Shown: piece by piece, positions 13,968 to 22,953 of the stretch
How the letters are laid out: each line of letters starts with the position of its first letter
Numbering within the stretch: position 1 is the stretch's first letter
Assembly (NCBI GenBank): GCA_030149205.1
Contig: JASBSB010000001.1
Span: 120,001-152,000, forward strand
From: Candidatus Heimdallarchaeota archaeon
Lineage (GTDB): Archaea > Asgardarchaeota > Heimdallarchaeia > Heimdallarchaeales > Kariarchaeaceae
Reading direction: 5' to 3'
DNA length: 32,000 nucleotides
Notes under the pieces: model-generated
Told to the model about the DNA's origin: nothing
The model's database searches: none
Seen by the model: only the letters and a program-made list of their open reading frames with translations
Translations under genes and position numbers: made by a program

Positions 13968-14908
13968 ATCAGTTCCCTTTGGTTAAACACAAGATAGTAT
14001 TGTTTTACAGGTATTAAAAGTCTACTAATTACTAACATTAGTTGACATCCACTTTTTCAAAGTGGGTCTACAAAAGTCATCACAGATATTAGTCTCCCAA
14101 CTAATACCTTTTTAATTAAAGTAATGAAATCTATTTTCAATTTCAATACGAAACTGTATTTCGGAAAACATCACACTTTAACACAATTCAATAGAAATAG
14201 ACTATTCATTAAGAAAATAAAAATAAAGAAAGTCGCTTCCATATTTAACAAGAAAGAATTGAAACTACGATAACAGATAAACCTAAAAATTATTAAGATA
14301 AAATAAGAGCAAAACCTATCAAATGGTACAAGGTGAAAGCATAAGACCAAGTTAATTCAATAGTAGATTCTTATCAACAAAAAGCTGCGAAATTACCACT
14401 CCCTAAAATTCTGCTCAAGTTAATCAGTTTACTGATAGAGGGAGTACAAGCTAAGATAAAGATTCTATAAATTATAATTGTAAAATCATATTTGCTCTAA
14501 TGTCGATTTTTGATTTTAAATTTGTTCATGAAAGGTATTGTCCATTGTAACCAGAACATCCCAATGAATTTGGGATTAAAATGAAAGAAATAGTTATTGA
14601 TCGTAAAAAGAGAAGAGAAGAGTTGAAAACCAATATGGGTAGTTATCTAATTTAGTGGTTTAGGTAGTTTACTTTACTAAATTAATACAATATTACAGAA
14701 GATTACAAAGATTAGATGTTTTAATTGCAAATATCATAAAAAACATTTCATCTTAGTAAATTTTTTAGTTTGTACTAAAGCAGAGTATTATTTCACAAAA
14801 AACAATCTAAGTTTGTTAGAACAGAAGATAAACAACCATTTTAAGGAAAAATATATGCAAAAAGAAATTTAAGTTCGGGTTAATTCTTTTCAATGACCTA
14901 ATATAATT

Positions 14909-15742
14909 TCAAGTGTCAAACTCTAATAAATCTATAAAGTCACACAATTTACAAAATTGACATACCTTAGATGTGAAATCTTGTTCAGGTAACTTTTTTA
15001 TATTATTTAATTGTTGTGATTTTTCGTATAAATTAGAAATCTCTTGCAATAATCCCCCAATCGTTTTCTGGTCAATTTTTTGAATTTGATCAAATTTTGG
15101 TTTACTATACCAAAGTTCAAGATTTATTTGCTGGTCTGGAAAAGAACTGTATAATATTTCACCATAAATTTTTATTTGATTCTCATCTTCTAGTTTTGGA
15201 GTACCCGTTTTGTATTCAATTATTCGTAATCCACCTGTTTCAGAAAATGCTACCAAGTCAATCTTACCACGTATTTGAAAATTGTGGTTAATTCTATTGA
15301 TAACAGTAAATTCATCTTGAATTACAAGTGATGTTATCTCATTATTATTAATTGTAACCAAACTTTCTGCCATAAGAGCAAGATTATGAAGTTGACTTGT
15401 AATTATATCAAAACTATTTGAAAATTCTTGGCGATGGTATTTCCATGGACCTGTATTATTCATCCATATTTTTTTTATTGAATCTAATTCAATTTCCATT
15501 GATAATAATATTGCATCCTTTATATTCTTACTTTTACGGTGATAAAAAAATTCAACATTACTAAAATTTCTTAGGAATACTCTCTGTAAAATTAAATGTA
15601 AAAAATTTCCCGCGTATACAAATTTGTTAGGTGTAAATGGTATTTTTATCTCCTGTTGAGCATATAATACCTGTAACATTGTTCTTCTTTTACAATTAAA
15701 TTCATTTACACTTGTAACTCCTAATCTTATTGATTTATTCAT
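14909..15742 (-). CDS. PD-(D/E)XK nuclease, Cas4/AddB-like with putative Fe-S cysteines
   Basis: C17 (EFNCKRR), GNFLH, IRGKIDLV, IIEYKTG (D...ExK), QIKIY (RecB-type QxxxY) and C-terminal CQFCKLC. Confidence 0.85.
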   Translation of the reverse strand: MNKSIRLGVTSVNEFNCKRRTMLQVLYAQQEIKIPFTPNKFVYAGNFLHLILQRVFLRNFSNVEFFYHRKSKNIKDAILLSMEIELDSIKKIWMNNTGPWKYHRQEFSNSFDIITSQLHNLALMAESLVTINNNEITSLVIQDEFTVINRINHNFQIRGKIDLVAFSETGGLRIIEYKTGTPKLEDENQIKIYGEILYSSFPDQQINLELWYSKPKFDQIQKIDQKTIGGLLQEISNLYEKSQQLNNIKKLPEQDFTSKVCQFCKLCDFIDLLEFDT

Positions 15743-17513
15743 TTAATGTCCTCCTATTTTCCAATAAAAATTCTGAAGAATAGTGCATAGCTAATCCAAG
15801 GATAAATGGAAATTTCGGTTTTGATAAACTGTATGGGTTTATGAAGGTTTGATAAAATACATCTTGAAGTATTTCTTGGATATCATGCAATCCTTTGATT
15901 TTTTCAATAAATAATGGTTTGGGAATACCTTCAAATAAATCATTAGGATATCCATTTGTCATAATTAATGACTTGTTATCATTAATACTAACTGATAAGC
16001 CATCAATTGCTTTAGAAGTATTTTCGATCTGTCCATAAAGGATTGAGTGTGATGAATTAACTAAAACTAAACAAAAATTATAATGGGAAATTTTATCAAT
16101 TAAAGGTAATAACTGTCTGTCTGAAATTTGAATTAAGAAGTGGTCTGAATCACTAAAATTAATCAATTTTTGTAAGAAATCATTAATTTTAACTTTTTCA
16201 TCGATATTTTTGTCTCTATCATTATAAAAAATATCATGTGAAATGTTAATATTTCCCTTATTAGAACTAACACCTGATAATATCATCCATTCTCCTGCAT
16301 AATATGGTGTTATATGAAGAGCGATTATATTCTGATGATACTTCATTGATACATTTTGATATAATTTTCGAGTGTATCTAAATCTAATATTCAACCAAAT
16401 TAGTTTTACAATTTTTCCCCAATCATCTTCTAATATTGTTGAAAATTTAATGATTTTATTTGGAATTACAATTTTTTCTTTAGTTTTATTGTATACATAT
16501 CCTGAACCCTTTATTCTATCGTCGATACATATTATAGCTGCATCTGCCTCAAATTTATGAAGCTTGGAGACATAATAGCTTTGAATTGTAATATTTAATC
16601 CTGTAACTTCTGCAAAATATGAAATAAAATTCTGAATCTTAATGGGGGTATTATCTGTCACAGATTTATCAATTAAAAATAATATATTGCTAATAAATGG
16701 ATCAAATGAAATGTTATCCTCTAAAATATCTACTAATGGAGTAGTGTTTAAAGTTTCAATAGTGTTTGAATTGATTTTTATCGACGGACTATTTATTAAA
16801 TCCCCTTTCAGATTCTCAATAACAGATAATCTTACATTTCCGATTTGATTTGTATTTATTACTTTGATTATTTTAAGGAATCTTTGTTCCACTGATTCAA
16901 AATTTCGATGTAATTGTAATACTTCTTTTTCTATTACACCAGGTATTAATTTATTAGATGTTAAGTTAAATGAATTTTCAGATATTTCATGTCTGGGATC
17001 ATAAAAAACCATAACCTTATCATCTCGCATCTCATGGCATTCAAACCTTTCAGCTTGAAAAATCGAATACGTGAATGTTTCATTAAACTGTTCAACAGTT
17101 TTTTCTACGATAGGATTTATTCTTTGACTAGCTACTCCTTTAGATTTTCCAATAAATGACAGTACCTCACTGGGTCTATAATAACCTTTGTTTGAAAATG
17201 TAATATATAAGGCTGTCAATACGAATATGTCAAGATTTTGTATTTCTTTCTTTTCATTAATCTCTGTAGTACAGATTGAAACAGGGATTGTAGCAATCTC
17301 CAAATGTGAAGGTGGTTTTTGTGCGAAAAGGTAATATGAATCCTTTACATATATAATTGTAAATGGAACATCTGATAAAAAATCACCATTTTTTAATGCA
17401 AAGGTCAGAAAGCTAAATTCATAGTTGTACTGCATGGAAACTTTGTACATTTTTAATACAGCTGTATCAATTTGTGCTATCCAACCAAGTATTTTGCATA
17501 TCATATAAACCAC
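15735..17513 (-). CDS. Argonaute/PIWI-like protein 2 (PAZ-less, catalytically inactive); probable start ATG 17504
   Basis: PIWI C-terminus SLIMTNG...EGIPKPLFIEK...EILQDVFYQTFINPYSLSKPKFPFILGLA. MID-like YNKTKEKIVIPNKII...LIWLNIRFRY. L1-like VMVFYDPRHEI. First catalytic Asp position is His (IALH). ATG 17504 overlaps the upstream TGA (ATGA). Confidence 0.75.
   Translation of the reverse strand: MVYMICKILGWIAQIDTAVLKMYKVSMQYNYEFSFLTFALKNGDFLSDVPFTIIYVKDSYYLFAQKPPSHLEIATIPVSICTTEINEKKEIQNLDIFVLTALYITFSNKGYYRPSEVLSFIGKSKGVASQRINPIVEKTVEQFNETFTYSIFQAERFECHEMRDDKVMVFYDPRHEISENSFNLTSNKLIPGVIEKEVLQLHRNFESVEQRFLKIIKVINTNQIGNVRLSVIENLKGDLINSPSIKINSNTIETLNTTPLVDILEDNISFDPFISNILFLIDKSVTDNTPIKIQNFISYFAEVTGLNITIQSYYVSKLHKFEADAAIICIDDRIKGSGYVYNKTKEKIVIPNKIIKFSTILEDDWGKIVKLIWLNIRFRYTRKLYQNVSMKYHQNIIALHITPYYAGEWMILSGVSSNKGNINISHDIFYNDRDKNIDEKVKINDFLQKLINFSDSDHFLIQISDRQLLPLIDKISHYNFCLVLVNSSHSILYGQIENTSKAIDGLSVSINDNKSLIMTNGYPNDLFEGIPKPLFIEKIKGLHDIQEILQDVFYQTFINPYSLSKPKFPFILGLAMHYSSEFLLENRRTLNE
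15749..15755 (-). promoter_or_regulatory. Shine-Dalgarno site AGGAGGA for the Cas4-like nuclease, inside the 3' end of the upstream Argonaute-like gene
   Basis: Minus strand reads AGGAGGACATTAAATG, with the ATG at 15742. Confidence 0.7.
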
Positions 17514-19702
17514 GGCTTTTTAAAATGGAAATTCGCCATATCTTTAGGAATTTTGCCCATACCTCTACTTGATGAATGAATTGGAACTGGGAGCTTAGTT
17601 TCAATTCTATCCCATCCAGAATAACAATGGCATAAATCAAAAATCTCATAAAGAAGTTTTTCAAATCTCTCCTCATCACATTTAATATTTCTTAATACAA
17701 TTGGATTTTGAGTCCCAACATTTCCTTGTGTTGAAATTAAACCAACTTCAGTCTTAGATATCCAATAAAAAGTCCCAATATGTGGCCGAAATATTCTATT
17801 TTTTTCATTCTTTGAATAAATACGAAGTGGAGACGAAGAAATTACCTCAACAATTGAATGTTTTAAATTAAGAATATTAAGGCTATGTTCAATATCTTTT
17901 AATTCTCTATCATAAAATTTTCCATTCTTTATTAAAACTACTTCATCATTATTTTTAGTGAGTAACTTAAAAGCACTTTCAAAATTTTGTTGACGATTTT
18001 CGACGTTATCAGAAATGTAGTATCCTCCACTAAATCTACCCGAATTATAATATGAATTTAGTAACCCCCGATATTTAGTTGCATCTAGTGAGATGTTTTG
18101 AGATTGCAAACCAATATATTTTACAAAACCATTTTCATTAACATTCAGTAACCATGAATGTAGACCTAACTTTGCAATTATACCCAAAAATATATTCCGA
18201 AAATACCCATTTTGTCTTGATTCAATTTTATCCTTCAGAACATTAAAATTAATTCCCTGATGAGGATATTCATTTTTTATTAATTCACCAGATACTAATT
18301 CTTTGAATTCACTATCTACACTATCATTATCAGAATGAACCACTATGATACAATTGTTGTTATTTACAAATTTATCCATATATTCTGATAAGTCTCCCTT
18401 TTTTTCGAGAAGTTTTATTTCATCAAACTCAATTTCTGTACTAAGAAATTGTTGAAGAATGATTATTTCTTTTGTTTCTTTTAGAAATGGCTTTTTTATT
18501 AATCCTAATTGATATTCATTATACTCTCGATATAATAAAATCGATATTTTTAACTTTTCGGGACCCTTATCAAATATCCCATATTTTTGAATTTCTAATG
18601 CTGGGTAATCAGTCCTATGTGAATTACCAATAATGTAATTATTCAAATCTAATAGTCCAGAGTTACATGAGTTCCAAGATTGAAAGTTTCTAATTGGATT
18701 TAGAGTTATTGAACCCACGGTTAAATTACCTATAAAACGCATATAATTCTGTGATCGTTTAAATCTAATCGGAGGGTCAGGCCTAATTTGTTTCATCAGG
18801 GCACCTCTATCATGATAATCCAAATGTGAAAATGTTGGTAATTCTCGAATTCTTTCTAAAGGGTATGAATAATACTCATCATTATCATTTTTATAGAATG
18901 ATAACGCAATAGGTGGTTCATCTTGTATAAATTCACCAAGCACGGGTGCTCTAGGACAAATGAATTTTTGTTTGTGAAACTCAATTATATCTAAATTATC
19001 AATTATTACCTCTGAAGGTTTCTTATTTACAATTTTTTTCAATTTCACAGTCTTCCCAGTTCCAGCATATCTACAGTTTGAGAAAGGATCCTGTTTTTCT
19101 GGACATTGAATAATTGGACAAGTATCTACATAATAATTTTTCGGATTTATTTCTATACTAGAATATGAAAGTTTCTCTCTCAATGATACGGATGAATGAA
19201 ATTTATATTTGAGATCAACTATTACTCCAACTTCACCATTTTTAAGCAAAATTGGAGCATATTGAAATCCTGGGAAAACATCAATTTTTCCAAAACCCTC
19301 GATGGTCTCAGGGCTAGAAACCTCAAATATTGAATTGTAAGTTTCTTGTATCTTCCATAATTTATTACTATGTCGTAAATTGACAGCAATAGCATCTCCA
19401 ATAATTCTTTTCAATAGATCTAAATCATCATCATTTTGGGCTGAAACTAATCTACTAGTAGGAGGAAATAAATTTACTGCCAAATCTTTTTCGAAATCAT
19501 CTTCAAGTAATTCGGTTGAAATTATCTTATCTCCAAATTGAATTATAATTTTACGTCGATTATCTGGAACTTTCCTAAGATTAAGTAATACATCACCAAG
19601 TTTTCGAAAGTTTATTTCTTCTTTTTTCCTATATTCAAAGACTGTAACTTTATCTTTGAATGGTGTTTTTTCAAATTTTAAAATATTAGTTATTATTTCC
19701 AT
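17501..19702 (-). CDS. ago: Long prokaryotic Argonaute (N-L1-PAZ-L2-MID-PIWI), catalytically inactive
   Basis: L1 DVFPGFQY...VIVDLKYKF; PAZ end YSYPLE; L2 IRPDPPIRF; MID YPHQGI...NIFLGIIAKLGLHSW; PIWI YIGLQ, VVLIKNG, GTQNPIVL, KLPVPIHSSS; terminal PWFI. Tetrad Asp positions read Q533, N593 and S712. Confidence 0.9.
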   Translation of the reverse strand: MEIITNILKFEKTPFKDKVTVFEYRKKEEINFRKLGDVLLNLRKVPDNRRKIIIQFGDKIISTELLEDDFEKDLAVNLFPPTSRLVSAQNDDDLDLLKRIIGDAIAVNLRHSNKLWKIQETYNSIFEVSSPETIEGFGKIDVFPGFQYAPILLKNGEVGVIVDLKYKFHSSVSLREKLSYSSIEINPKNYYVDTCPIIQCPEKQDPFSNCRYAGTGKTVKLKKIVNKKPSEVIIDNLDIIEFHKQKFICPRAPVLGEFIQDEPPIALSFYKNDNDEYYSYPLERIRELPTFSHLDYHDRGALMKQIRPDPPIRFKRSQNYMRFIGNLTVGSITLNPIRNFQSWNSCNSGLLDLNNYIIGNSHRTDYPALEIQKYGIFDKGPEKLKISILLYREYNEYQLGLIKKPFLKETKEIIILQQFLSTEIEFDEIKLLEKKGDLSEYMDKFVNNNNCIIVVHSDNDSVDSEFKELVSGELIKNEYPHQGINFNVLKDKIESRQNGYFRNIFLGIIAKLGLHSWLLNVNENGFVKYIGLQSQNISLDATKYRGLLNSYYNSGRFSGGYYISDNVENRQQNFESAFKLLTKNNDEVVLIKNGKFYDRELKDIEHSLNILNLKHSIVEVISSSPLRIYSKNEKNRIFRPHIGTFYWISKTEVGLISTQGNVGTQNPIVLRNIKCDEERFEKLLYEIFDLCHCYSGWDRIETKLPVPIHSSSRGMGKIPKDMANFHFKKPWFI

Positions 19703-19704
19703 AT

Positions 19705-20391
19705 TTATCTCTCTTTGTTTTTAAGTAACTCAAATGAACTTATCACCGCAAGGTCTGTGTTAACCGTTTTTGTTAGTATTTTCTTACAAGCTGAATGCAT
19801 TATGAAAAATCCTGTACCTAACGCAGTTTTCATTAACTCGTTTTTTGCGGATTGCAATAAAATATCATTAACTATTATTTCAGGATGAACTGATGTTGAA
19901 AAATATACTTGGATTGTAAATGAACTCGTATCATCCAAAAACAAAAAAGAATTTATTCCATCTTTTTTCCAATTACACTTCAGTGAAAAAAGATCTTCAA
20001 TTCTTGAATTAAACCCGTCTAATCTATTAAATTCTTCGCTAATTTCTTTGATAGGTAGTATAATTGAAGATTTTAACAAATAATTCCCCATAACTCTCAG
20101 GTGCCAATTAGAATTAAATTTATCTACGTCTAATACTTGTATAGTTTGATTGGATTGATACAATCCTGTATCTTCTTCATAAGAAAGCAGATTATCTTTA
20201 GTTAATTGGCTAAGTATCATTTCAACTTCTACATTTGGTATATGATCAAAATATAGATTACTTCTCCCAGAACTCATCCAAATATGTTTCACTATATTTG
20301 ATTTTTTTGCACTACCATAATCTCGCAGGAAATCAAGAATTAATTTTTTAATTGCTTTCTCCATTGAATCTTTAGGTTTCATATCAATCAC
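19705..20391 (-). CDS. Winged-helix protein with a possible degenerate restriction-endonuclease (Mrr-like) C-terminal region
   Basis: N-terminal wHTH pattern (LILDFLRDYGSAKKSNIV...VEMILSQLTKDNLLSYEEDTGLY). C-terminal beta/alpha region with FTIQVY where Mrr has xQxK. GTG 20391 overlaps the upstream TGA; alternative ATG at 20382. Confidence 0.5.
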   Translation of the reverse strand: MIDMKPKDSMEKAIKKLILDFLRDYGSAKKSNIVKHIWMSSGRSNLYFDHIPNVEVEMILSQLTKDNLLSYEEDTGLYQSNQTIQVLDVDKFNSNWHLRVMGNYLLKSSIILPIKEISEEFNRLDGFNSRIEDLFSLKCNWKKDGINSFLFLDDTSSFTIQVYFSTSVHPEIIVNDILLQSAKNELMKTALGTGFFIMHSACKKILTKTVNTDLAVISSFELLKNKER

Positions 20392-21428
20392 CTGACTATC
20401 TCCTTAATCTTTGACTTTAGTTCTTCAGAATTATCTACAATTACAACATTCTTAAAATTGTAGCGTATTTCATCATAATATTGATTAGAATTGTTTAAAA
20501 TAATAAAATGGGTAATATCAATAAACGAAGTAAAAGCAAAATTAATTTCATCTACCTCTTCAGAAGGTAAATGCATATCTACAATCCATAATCCAATTTT
20601 TAGGTTATTCAATTCAATGTAAATGGGAATTGTTATACTCTCATTCTGACTATTTGTAATCTTTATTTCCTTACGGATAAAAATTGGATTGAATTCTTGA
20701 ATTACATTGAGGAAGCTTTGACCAATTTTCTCCTGTAAATACTTGAAATCATCACTGAAAGCCGGAATTCCAGATATTTCCTCAAAATCTTTTGCTGTGT
20801 ATTTTGTTCTCATTTGAGAGCTTGATTTTGTAATTATTTGTTCTATTATATCTTGAAATATTTGTTTAGGATTACGAATTAGAATATTATATTTTGATAG
20901 CTCTTCAAGACATTTACTCTTAATATTATCGAATGGACTTGATGGATGATTGGGGGCAAAATAATTCCAAACAAATTCTATTTTTTTGAATACTTCAATT
21001 TTTTTCTGATCTGTGAATTTTCCTTTGAAAAGAGAATTTATTCTACCTTTATCAGCATTTGAAATTTCTAAATTGTTCTGAAGGTTTTGTTGAATTTGCA
21101 GTAGTTCAGTAATTTCTGCATTCCAACCCGATTGAGTTGTAAATCGAAATTTAATTTCTTTTCCAGATAAATTTTTTTCATCTTCCTGTATGAACTTTGT
21201 TAAAATTGGTATCAAACTTGATTTATTCCAGACACTATGTTCTTTTTTCTTTACCTGTTCAAATATAAAGTACCCAGTATATTCTATGTTAATATCTTCT
21301 AATTCATCATCCTTTGATTCAAATTCAATTGATAAAATCTGATCTCCTTTAATGAATTCAATGACTCTTAGTACTCCAACCATATTTTGGTAATTAATAC
21401 CATAGTTTGTATCAATTCCACTTGGCAA
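20388..21428 (-). CDS. Cap4/DUF4297-like dsDNA PD-(D/E)XK nuclease-domain protein
   Basis: N-terminal GINYQ...IEFE...LEDINI...FEQVK...W pattern (D45, Q58-x-K60) as in Cap4/LmuA-type nuclease effectors. TTG start. Confidence 0.72.
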   Translation of the reverse strand: MPSGIDTNYGINYQNMVGVLRVIEFIKGDQILSIEFESKDDELEDINIEYTGYFIFEQVKKKEHSVWNKSSLIPILTKFIQEDEKNLSGKEIKFRFTTQSGWNAEITELLQIQQNLQNNLEISNADKGRINSLFKGKFTDQKKIEVFKKIEFVWNYFAPNHPSSPFDNIKSKCLEELSKYNILIRNPKQIFQDIIEQIITKSSSQMRTKYTAKDFEEISGIPAFSDDFKYLQEKIGQSFLNVIQEFNPIFIRKEIKITNSQNESITIPIYIELNNLKIGLWIVDMHLPSEEVDEINFAFTSFIDITHFIILNNSNQYYDEIRYNFKNVVIVDNSEELKSKIKEIVR

Positions 21429-21810
21429 TATTTTAAATCTAGTTTTCTTTATAATAATTCAGAGATATTGTAATAATCAAAATGAAAGTTTTAAAAATTT
21501 AAATATACAATATGTGATATCAAAAAAATTTTATTGCAAAGACTTAAAATAAATGAGAACTCGAAGCTGGATAAAGACCTATAACCGTGATTTCCTTGAA
21601 ATATCTCGGATATAATCAAGAAAATAAATTAGTAAATCTAAATCTTGATTGAAATATTCTTCGTCTACTAATTATTCTTATTATATTGTTATCTTATAAG
21701 AGTTGGAAGTACACAGATATTCGACTTGCTAAGTCAGTATACAATATATATTCAACCAGTATCTTTCAACTATGACTACCAATTCCAAAAAAAAAATGAA
21801 ATTGAATGAA

Positions 21811-22953
21811 TTAATCCAGGTGTTTATTGTTTTTCTTAATATGCTGCAATGTATCTTCATTGTGAGCTGCCAAATACTCAAAAGAATTGTCATACATAGT
21901 TTGATTTAATCTATGAATAATGTCACTTTTTACGAAAATACTATATTCAACAGGAGTTTTGTTATCAATTGTAGATAAATTATTTGTTATGTATTTCATA
22001 AAATTTTCCAGATTTAACAATCCTATCGCAATTGTGGGATTAATTGGTATGTAATATTCTAACATAACTGATACTCCATTTACTATTAACTCTGCTATAA
22101 TCAATGGATTGTCTGAAGTAATTAATTCTACAGGGTGGTCTTGAGGATTTAGTCCAGATAGATTAATTATGATGATCGGCCTGAGTTCAGTATGTTTTAG
22201 TGGTTTATCAACTGTTTCATCAGGCAATTTTTGTAAAACTTCTCTGATTTTATTTTCAATTTCGATTTGACTATCTTTATGATCTAAAGATTTCTTTATT
22301 CCGATACTAATATTTTTACTTATTAAGGATATCATACCTTGTAAGTCGTTTTTTAAAAAATACCCCTGTGCTTTTTGTAAAAACACCTCGTCATATTTAA
22401 TATTACTTTGATATAGAATCTCCTGTGTTTCAGTGCTAATAAAACTAAAATCCAATATCTTACTAAATTTCATGTAATTTCTAAATGAAGGTGTTCTAAA
22501 CGTTAGATGATTAATAAAATCACATAAAATTTCGAAATTTGATTGCAAATGCATAGCATCTATGAAAGTCTCCGCAAATTTTTTTATATCTAATGATTTT
22601 TTGAATATGTTATCTCTATTACTAGGGTTGTAAATTTTTATTTTCTCAGTTTGAAAATTTAATTTTTCTAATCCAGTAAAGAACTTAGCGACTTTATCCT
22701 CAGCTTCACTCATCAAATCGTCAATCAGTTCCTCTAAAAACCTTGGAGAATAAAAACTTTGATTAATCTTTTTTTTGTCAATATCCCCAGTCTTTTTGTT
22801 CAACCTAAATACTCTTTTCTTTTTGTTATCTTTTTCAAAATCCTCCTCAATAACAAAATTTCGTAGAAACCACTGAGGAATATAATGTTGTTTTCTGCCT
22901 GACATGAACATAACTGTGGAATAATTGTATATTATAGTATTTGAACGAGACAT
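21811..22953 (-). CDS. DUF4238 domain protein
   Basis: QHYIPQWFLRNF near the N-terminus, LTFRTPSFR, LITSDNPL and YIPINPTIAI. Confidence 0.85.
   Translation of the reverse strand: MSRSNTIIYNYSTVMFMSGRKQHYIPQWFLRNFVIEEDFEKDNKKKRVFRLNKKTGDIDKKKINQSFYSPRFLEELIDDLMSEAEDKVAKFFTGLEKLNFQTEKIKIYNPSNRDNIFKKSLDIKKFAETFIDAMHLQSNFEILCDFINHLTFRTPSFRNYMKFSKILDFSFISTETQEILYQSNIKYDEVFLQKAQGYFLKNDLQGMISLISKNISIGIKKSLDHKDSQIEIENKIREVLQKLPDETVDKPLKHTELRPIIIINLSGLNPQDHPVELITSDNPLIIAELIVNGVSVMLEYYIPINPTIAIGLLNLENFMKYITNNLSTIDNKTPVEYSIFVKSDIIHRLNQTMYDNSFEYLAAHNEDTLQHIKKNNKHLD

Follow-up and report, generated by a model that had tools for sequence, protein, structure and literature searches.

A Cas4-family nuclease encoded behind a pair of Argonautes lacking catalytic aspartates in Asgard archaea

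The last gene of a compact Asgard operon encodes what is, by its motifs, a stand-alone and catalytically intact enzyme of the Cas4 family, and this gene is linked to a pair of Argonaute genes. We put the probability of this identity together with the linkage at about 0.9. Its probable role is to cut DNA as the partner of Argonautes in an immune system. The operon was analysed within a window of 32,000 nucleotides, the whole stretch of DNA under study, which corresponds to C4:120001-152000 of the genome assembly. In order of transcription, its five genes are the following.

Positions 20388 to 21428, minus strand: Cap4-type nuclease-domain gene, 346 aa, first in the operon (Pfam Cap4_nuclease, E 1e-9).
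Positions 19705 to 20391, minus strand: 228-aa gene of no known family, in a slot conserved across loci.
Positions 17501 to 19702, minus strand: Ago1, 733 aa, a full-length Argonaute without catalytic aspartates (PADLOC pAgo models to E 1e-39).
Positions 15735 to 17513, minus strand: Ago2-like gene, 592 aa, with a degenerate MID-PIWI (hhalign to the Ago1 family).
Positions 14909 to 15742, minus strand: Cas4-family PD-(D/E)XK nuclease gene, 277 aa (open reading frame with an ATG start).

The nuclease gene is the fifth and final gene of this tightly packed minus-strand operon. GC content falls to 26-29% across roughly 14-23 kb, the block that holds the operon, against about 35% in both flanks. 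The ATG start agrees with the N-termini of two homologues of 64-70% identity. Ago2 and the nuclease are joined closely: the stop of the former and the start of the latter overlap by 8 nt, and the strong Shine-Dalgarno sequence that the original prediction had placed inside the Ago2 gene is indeed there, 6 nt upstream of the ATG, where it doubles as the Arg-Arg codons of the ...RRTLNE end of Ago2. At the same spot, four of the six other loci with the order Ago1-Ago2-nuclease carry a purine-rich GGAGG, GAGGA or GAGGGG. Rfam at gathering thresholds and ARAGORN returned no match in the window, with the proviso that both can miss tRNAs with non-canonical introns.

Two further observations concern the surroundings of the operon. 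Just upstream, within the same low-GC stretch, positions 21811-22953 of the minus strand encode a 380-aa DUF4238 protein (Pfam E 6e-15), which may be a separate defence-island gene. A direct repeat (window 14020-14040 and 21663-21683), whose copies have the exact 12-mer GTCTACTAATTA in common, brackets the five-gene operon and coincides with the edges of the low-GC block. We rejected this repeat as meaningful, since by our estimate chance alone would probably produce 12-nt matches in 10 kb of DNA this rich in AT.

The elements of the nuclease gene and protein on which the family assignment depends are these.

Positions 15749 to 15755, minus strand: Shine-Dalgarno-like AGGAGGA, 5' of the nuclease ATG and within the Ago2 reading frame.
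Positions 15692 to 15694, minus strand: codon of C17, the N-terminal iron-staple cysteine, invariant in 41/41 full-length family members.
Positions 15209 to 15259, minus strand: catalytic core, D162 through E176-x-K178; neither D162 nor K178 varies, and every member has Glu or Asp at position 176.
Positions 15164 to 15178, minus strand: Q189-x3-Y193 (QIKIY); Q189 is invariant and Y193 is present in 40/41 members.
Positions 14942 to 14962, minus strand: C261-x2-C264-x2-C267 triad, read from the sequence; all three cysteines are invariant in the family.

Every motif first noticed in this protein, namely D...EYK, QIKIY, a single N-terminal Cys and CxxCxxC, can be read in the sequence. D162 lies within GKIDLV and E176-Y-K178 within IIEYKTG, and together they align with the D...DxK motif of CtACE1. 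Pfam PDDEXK_1 matches the protein at E 5e-11 (43.4 bits, against a cut-off of 22), and Pfam also gives a marginal match to the Dna2 N-terminal family. There are exactly four cysteines, C17, C261, C264 and C267. Is the compact spacing of the last three, which the original prediction had set against the usual CxxC-x5-C, genuine? In HMMER alignments, both mouse Dna2 (CKYCSQIGNC) and MaACE1 (CRYCPFTSIC) read C-x2-C-x5-C where the nuclease reads C-x2-C-x2-C. Because three more residues precede the last cysteine in both of these proteins than in the nuclease, we take the compact form to be real. The catalytic triad, the QhxxY motif, the arrangement of one N-terminal and three C-terminal cysteines and the fold are all features of the iron-staple PD-(D/E)XK superfamily, and the four-cysteine staple probably holds a [4Fe-4S] cluster.

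The AlphaFold2 model, built from a 33-sequence alignment, is very confident (pLDDT 95.2, pTM 0.91). Foldseek places the crystal structures of CtACE1 and MaACE1 first (E 8e-8), followed by AdnA, Dna2, the Cas4 protein SSO0001 and AddB. The model superposes 219-247 residues on most chains of the larger nucleases that thread ssDNA, whereas only 162-180 residues superpose on minimal Cas4. A single-sequence search of the PDB likewise gave ACE1 as its sole meaningful match, at a marginal E of 0.035. A special kinship with eukaryotic Dna2 was considered and rejected: the profile matches Dna2 at E 4e-7, but MaACE1 (8e-7) and Cas4 (8.5e-7) are matched about equally well. The helicase-nucleases AddAB, AdnAB and Dna2 are enzymes of DNA repair and replication. 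In AdnA, AddB and eukaryotic Dna2 (PDB 9NP6, 6PPR, 4CEH, 5EAN) the nuclease is one domain of a helicase-nuclease of about 900-1150 aa, whereas here it stands alone, and no helicase gene was found among the operon genes scanned with Pfam and PADLOC.

Could the protein instead be the Cas4 of a CRISPR adaptation module? With CRISPR Cas4 (TIGR00372; PDB 4IC1 for SSO0001, and 8D3L) it shares the PD-(D/E)XK core, QhxxY and a four-cysteine cluster, and Cas4 models are its best named sequence matches: they match 27 of 33 family members, down to E 3e-13, with NCBIfam cas4 alone matching 25 of the 33 (best E 1.3e-12). It is, however, about 70-90 residues longer than CRISPR Cas4, and against TIGR00372/NCBIfam cas4 it scores 22.7 bits as a protein and 23.2 bits in the genome scan, far from the curated cut-off of 65, which no matching family member reaches. 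The original prediction saw no CRISPR locus, and for the window this stands, as the nuclease has no adjacent cas1, cas2 or CRISPR array and Tandem Repeats Finder found no tandem repeats within the window; the genome, however, does carry two cas1-cas4 loci elsewhere. In that genome Cas1 matches are confined to C4:3095-3913 and C8:8098-8823, and the nearer of them lies about 116 kb from the start of the window. Two cas4 genes exceed the cut-off, one on C4 at about 3-4.4 kb and one on C8; one of them directly adjoins a cas1, and the other shares a contig with the second cas1, at a distance of about 5.4 kb. With two such cas4 genes already near cas1, and with the Cas4 proteins they encode falling outside the nuclease family in our tree, it is highly improbable that the nuclease serves in trans as the adaptation Cas4 of the genome's cas1-cas2 modules.

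How large, then, is the family to which the nuclease belongs? A word-indexed search returned two close relatives only, whereas searching a profile exhaustively against 1.84 billion representative proteins gave 41 matches below E 1e-10. All of these are at most 343 aa long, so the family has no fused forms; proteins of about 1000 aa enter the profile search only at E 6e-6 or weaker, and generic Cas4-like and AddB-like proteins have much weaker E-values than the family. Four cysteines, E144, D162, E/D176, K178 and Q189 are present in all 41 full-length members, an invariance that points to selection for an active Fe-S nuclease, and the C-terminal cysteine spacing is usually CxxCxxC. The PADLOC models for pAgo-associated Cas4-like nucleases (Aga_Cas4-like_Nuc) matched six of 33 members, weakly.

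In a quick maximum-likelihood tree, which resolves the family clade and not the deep branches, the nuclease family is a supported clade (SH-aLRT 96). Outside it fall the host's two Cas4 proteins, most other Cas4-like matches, the C-termini of AddB-like proteins and two ACE2-like representatives; two long-branch Cas4-like sequences (P0046 and P0060) fell inside. The ACE2-like representatives, P0067 and P0074, match Aga_Cas4-like_Nuc and are ACE2-like by length; ACE enzymes are represented in the tree by these two sequences. Because these representatives lie outside the family clade, an ACE-like function of the nuclease could be convergent. Those members that carry source names come from Odinarchaeota and Helarchaeota MAGs and one marine sediment metagenome, and as far as such names go the clade is rare and Asgard-restricted.

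In about one third of the family, a basic linker leads into a C-terminal [ILM]-x-x-[FY]-[FYLI] motif, with QKSILDFL, QKDILQFF and RSIFDFY among the examples. The tail is borne by P0005, P0006, P0013, P0016, P0017, P0019, P0020, P0023, P0026, P0027, P0031, P0038 and P0044, and has no counterpart in the nuclease of the window and its two closest relatives. By sequence it resembles an archaeal PIP box, which suggests recruitment by PCNA.

The neighbourhoods of family members were surveyed in 400 Asgard genomes and one metagenome contig, with about 30 metagenomic members lying outside this set. A strong member is found in nine of the 400 Asgard species genomes. The order Ago1-Ago2-nuclease occurs in the genome of the window, in G045, G238, G249, G229 and G160 and on the metagenome contig SDBU01021226, with stop/start overlaps of 1-8 nt among these genes at all seven loci. 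The seven loci represent four lineages of about 30% mutual identity, spread over two Asgard classes. Searching from the other side, the Ago2 profile detects seven of the 400 Asgard genomes, which are the six with the operon and one whose contig ends inside Ago2, and the nuclease directly follows Ago2 in every genome that could be tested (6/6). Argonaute-linked members are present in all three subclades of the nuclease family. Three close pairs and a deep divergence of roughly 30% are common to the nuclease and Ago2; the correlation of their identities (Pearson 0.98, Spearman 0.27) was set aside as an independent test, as it rests on those three close pairs. The nuclease and Ago2 are both missing from the three genomes, 82-89% complete, that belong to the genus of the window, and such a patchy distribution of the two genes is typical of defence islands. 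What we found is a clade apart from housekeeping nucleases whose linkage to Argonautes recurs in other genomes, so the refuting outcome named with the original prediction did not occur.

Other searches for loci widened the picture little. Scanning metagenomes with close homologues of the nuclease gave no loci, and scanning them with a subset alignment gave three, only one of which was long enough to inform. A scan of viral contigs with the nuclease family gave no loci, and a class-level genome search centred on G238 added none.

The nuclease also occurs in other company. At an eighth locus, in G081, it follows a different Argonaute, which brings the Argonaute-adjacent total to eight loci. There (L035, 3742-11452) a 709-aa Argonaute with Asp at GID and RDG is followed by a Cas4-like protein (316 aa) and an RmuC-family protein (280 aa), and the genes of a 266-aa winged-helix protein and of a dead Argonaute (748 aa) are in divergent orientation to these three. 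The Asp residues were read from an alignment, and phmmer of the 709-aa Argonaute against the PDB gave no match. In G015 and G016 no Argonaute lies nearby, and next to the nuclease copies are genes for a ParA-like ATPase and DUF4365, together with small genes in repeated sets, which is why the copies might be borne by mobile elements. Both genomes are complete and belong to the same order, and they carry one (L034) and five (L032, L033, L036 and L037) nuclease copies or fragments, respectively.

Do these copies mean that the nuclease is a general enzyme of DNA repair or of mobile elements that merely adjoins Argonautes? The Argonaute-free copies beside ParA-like and DUF4365 genes would fit such an enzyme, as would the PIP-box-like tail of about one third of the family, and many ACE1 and ACE2 genes are likewise found in genomes without a pAgo (PMC12094033). 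Gene order and overlaps, however, have been kept in seven loci at about 30% identity across two Asgard classes, and the Argonaute-free copies form a single clade nested in the tree, so that G015 and G016 look like a secondary escape from the Argonautes. Because the family is absent from 391 of the 400 Asgard genomes, three of the same genus included, a housekeeping gene is also a poor fit. We regard a repair or mobile-element role with only incidental Argonaute neighbours as very unlikely.

The two Argonautes themselves both look catalytically inactive from their residues. Ago1 has GLQ and KNG in place of the GLD and RDG of CtAgo and CpAgo, and across its family the first catalytic Asp position holds Q, N or K and the RDG position has no Asp. 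In hhalign the Ago2 family aligns with the MID-PIWI of the Ago1 family at 97.6% probability and E 4.5e-12, and its first Asp position is taken by His. With the catalytic Asp replaced in both proteins and the gene overlap described above, the coupling to inactive Argonautes proposed at the outset is borne out. By its profile the Ago1 family comes closest to the long-A pAgos CpAgo, CbAgo and KmAgo, then to CtAgo and PfAgo. The top PADLOC model for Ago1 is PprPIWI (E 1e-39), covering mainly the part from the N-terminus to MID. We rejected assignment to a pPIWI-RE ('Ppr') operon: a helicase gene is missing, the Cas4-like protein matches none of the Ppr nuclease models, and Ago1 is nearest long-A.

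Upstream of the Argonautes, the slot of the 228-aa gene holds a gene of 227-234 aa at L001, L028, L029 and L031; by BLASTP no homology was shown between the second gene of about 230 aa and its positional counterparts in G238 and G160. The first gene is Cap4-like in the window, in G045 and in G160, whereas in G238 it is a 433-aa calcineurin-like phosphoesterase (metallophosphoesterase), and G249 has a 433-aa gene in the first slot, known by position and length. The leading enzyme of the operon is exchangeable and the nuclease is constant.

How does this operon compare with known systems? ACE1 cleaves ssDNA endonucleolytically, pairs with its pAgo as a heterodimer and trims siDNA guides (PMC12094033). 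Like ACE1 and ACE2 of the APACE systems (PDB 9IAB, 9IAC), the nuclease is a stand-alone protein of about 278 aa, which is the mean length of ACE1 (PMC12094033), with D...(D/E)xK and one N-terminal and three C-terminal cysteines, and it is encoded in an operon with a pAgo; as in APACE, the partner Ago1 is of a family nearest the long-A pAgos. The differences are equally clear. Sequence likeness to ACE1/ACE2 is marginal, going by the PDB search and the Aga_Cas4-like_Nuc matches given above, and the cysteines read CxxCxxC against CxxCx5C in ACE1. The pAgo of APACE is an active long-A protein, whereas here there are two Argonaute partners, both without the catalytic Asp, and two more genes, one of them exchangeable, belong to the operon. 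The named hosts are Asgard archaea, whereas those of ACE1/ACE2 are cyanobacteria or Bacillota. With the long-B pAgo-nuclease (BPAN) systems and other pairings of an inactive pAgo with an effector, the operon shares a catalytically dead Argonaute co-encoded with a nuclease, but it has two Argonautes and a Cas4-family nuclease, and the Ago1 profile matches long-A structures far better than the long-B EcAgo.

The original prediction held that pairing a Cas4-like enzyme with dead Argonautes is unusual, and this was overstated. Ryazansky et al. 2018 (PMC6299218) list Cas4-family nucleases among the partners of inactive pAgos, with reference to Makarova 2009 and Swarts 2014. Long-B and short pAgos, too, are reported by Bobadilla Ugarte et al. 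2025 (PMC12094033) to share operons or loci with some ACE1/ACE2 genes. What is unusual is a distinct, Asgard-restricted CxxCxxC clade fixed behind an Argonaute pair. A search of open-access papers on Asgard Argonautes and on Asgard defence turned up no mention of a Cas4-like partner or of the operon. Given this, and given that the pairing of Cas4-family enzymes with inactive pAgos is already known, we place the nuclease, by its sequence, in a putative third lineage of Cas4-family enzymes associated with Argonautes, one that is restricted to Asgard archaea, has CxxCxxC as its mark and is tied to an Argonaute pair.

Why would two Argonautes that cannot cut need this enzyme? If ACE1 and the nuclease domains of AdnA, AddB and Dna2 are a guide, the nuclease would bind the Ago1/Ago2 pair, and single-stranded DNA ends would be threaded into its buried active site and then cut. 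Its main job would be to make or trim the small DNA guides loaded by the dead Argonautes, and the variable first gene of the operon, Cap4-like here, would supply the effector that is switched on after target recognition. We lean tentatively, at slightly under even odds, towards such an ACE1-like ssDNA nuclease subunit that processes guides. An ACE1-like core subunit is favoured because the nuclease is constant while the leading enzyme is swappable. A constant nuclease could equally be the cutter, because both Argonautes are dead whereas the partners of ACE1 cut.

The main rival to guide processing is that the dead Ago1 and Ago2 find the invader through guide pairing and the nuclease, as effector and substitute slicer, receives from them the single strand, whether bound or displaced, and degrades it, with the upstream enzyme being optional. 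Neither Argonaute has catalytic aspartates, and the Cas4-like gene is the sole nuclease gene common to every locus, both of which speak for such a role. Nucleases co-encoded with inactive pAgos have been proposed to replace slicing (PMC6299218), and the long-B BPAN systems, where a nuclease is the effector of an inactive pAgo, provide a precedent (PMC13535254). Against it, the closest folds, ACE1, AdnA and Dna2, bury the active site, the channel of ACE1 and AdnA being argued to admit only ssDNA (PMC12094033), and this would be poorly suited to dsDNA invaders without a helicase. The operon also has a separate and exchangeable head gene, Cap4-like or metallophosphoesterase, and where an inactive pAgo is co-encoded with exchangeable genes, these are usually the effectors. 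We consider a substitute slicer a real possibility, though one that we would not expect to prevail.

A bolder arrangement, which we think rather unlikely, would make Ago1, Ago2 and the Cas4-like protein a three-part guided nuclease, a programmable 'slicer in trans' specific to Asgard archaea. The dead Argonautes would hold guide and target, the Fe-S nuclease would cut the captured strand, and in some lineages the complex would be tethered to the replication clamp via the PIP-like tail. Such a machine would be distinct from APACE, BPAN and short-pAgo systems.

To our knowledge, the only Cas4-family/Argonaute partnership that has been studied experimentally is APACE1, in which the Argonaute itself cuts. 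The operon described here has a Cas4-family nuclease locked to two Argonautes that, as predicted from their residues, are unable to cut, and it occurs in Asgard archaea, which among archaeal phyla are closest to eukaryotes. If guides are made by the nuclease, as we tentatively favour, the operon would show how guides are supplied to slicer-dead Argonautes; if the nuclease does the cutting, the system would be a guide-directed nuclease that is split by nature. Either way, the CxxCxxC variant provides a clean sequence marker by which to find the system, and a compact alternative arrangement of cysteines for studies of the iron staple.
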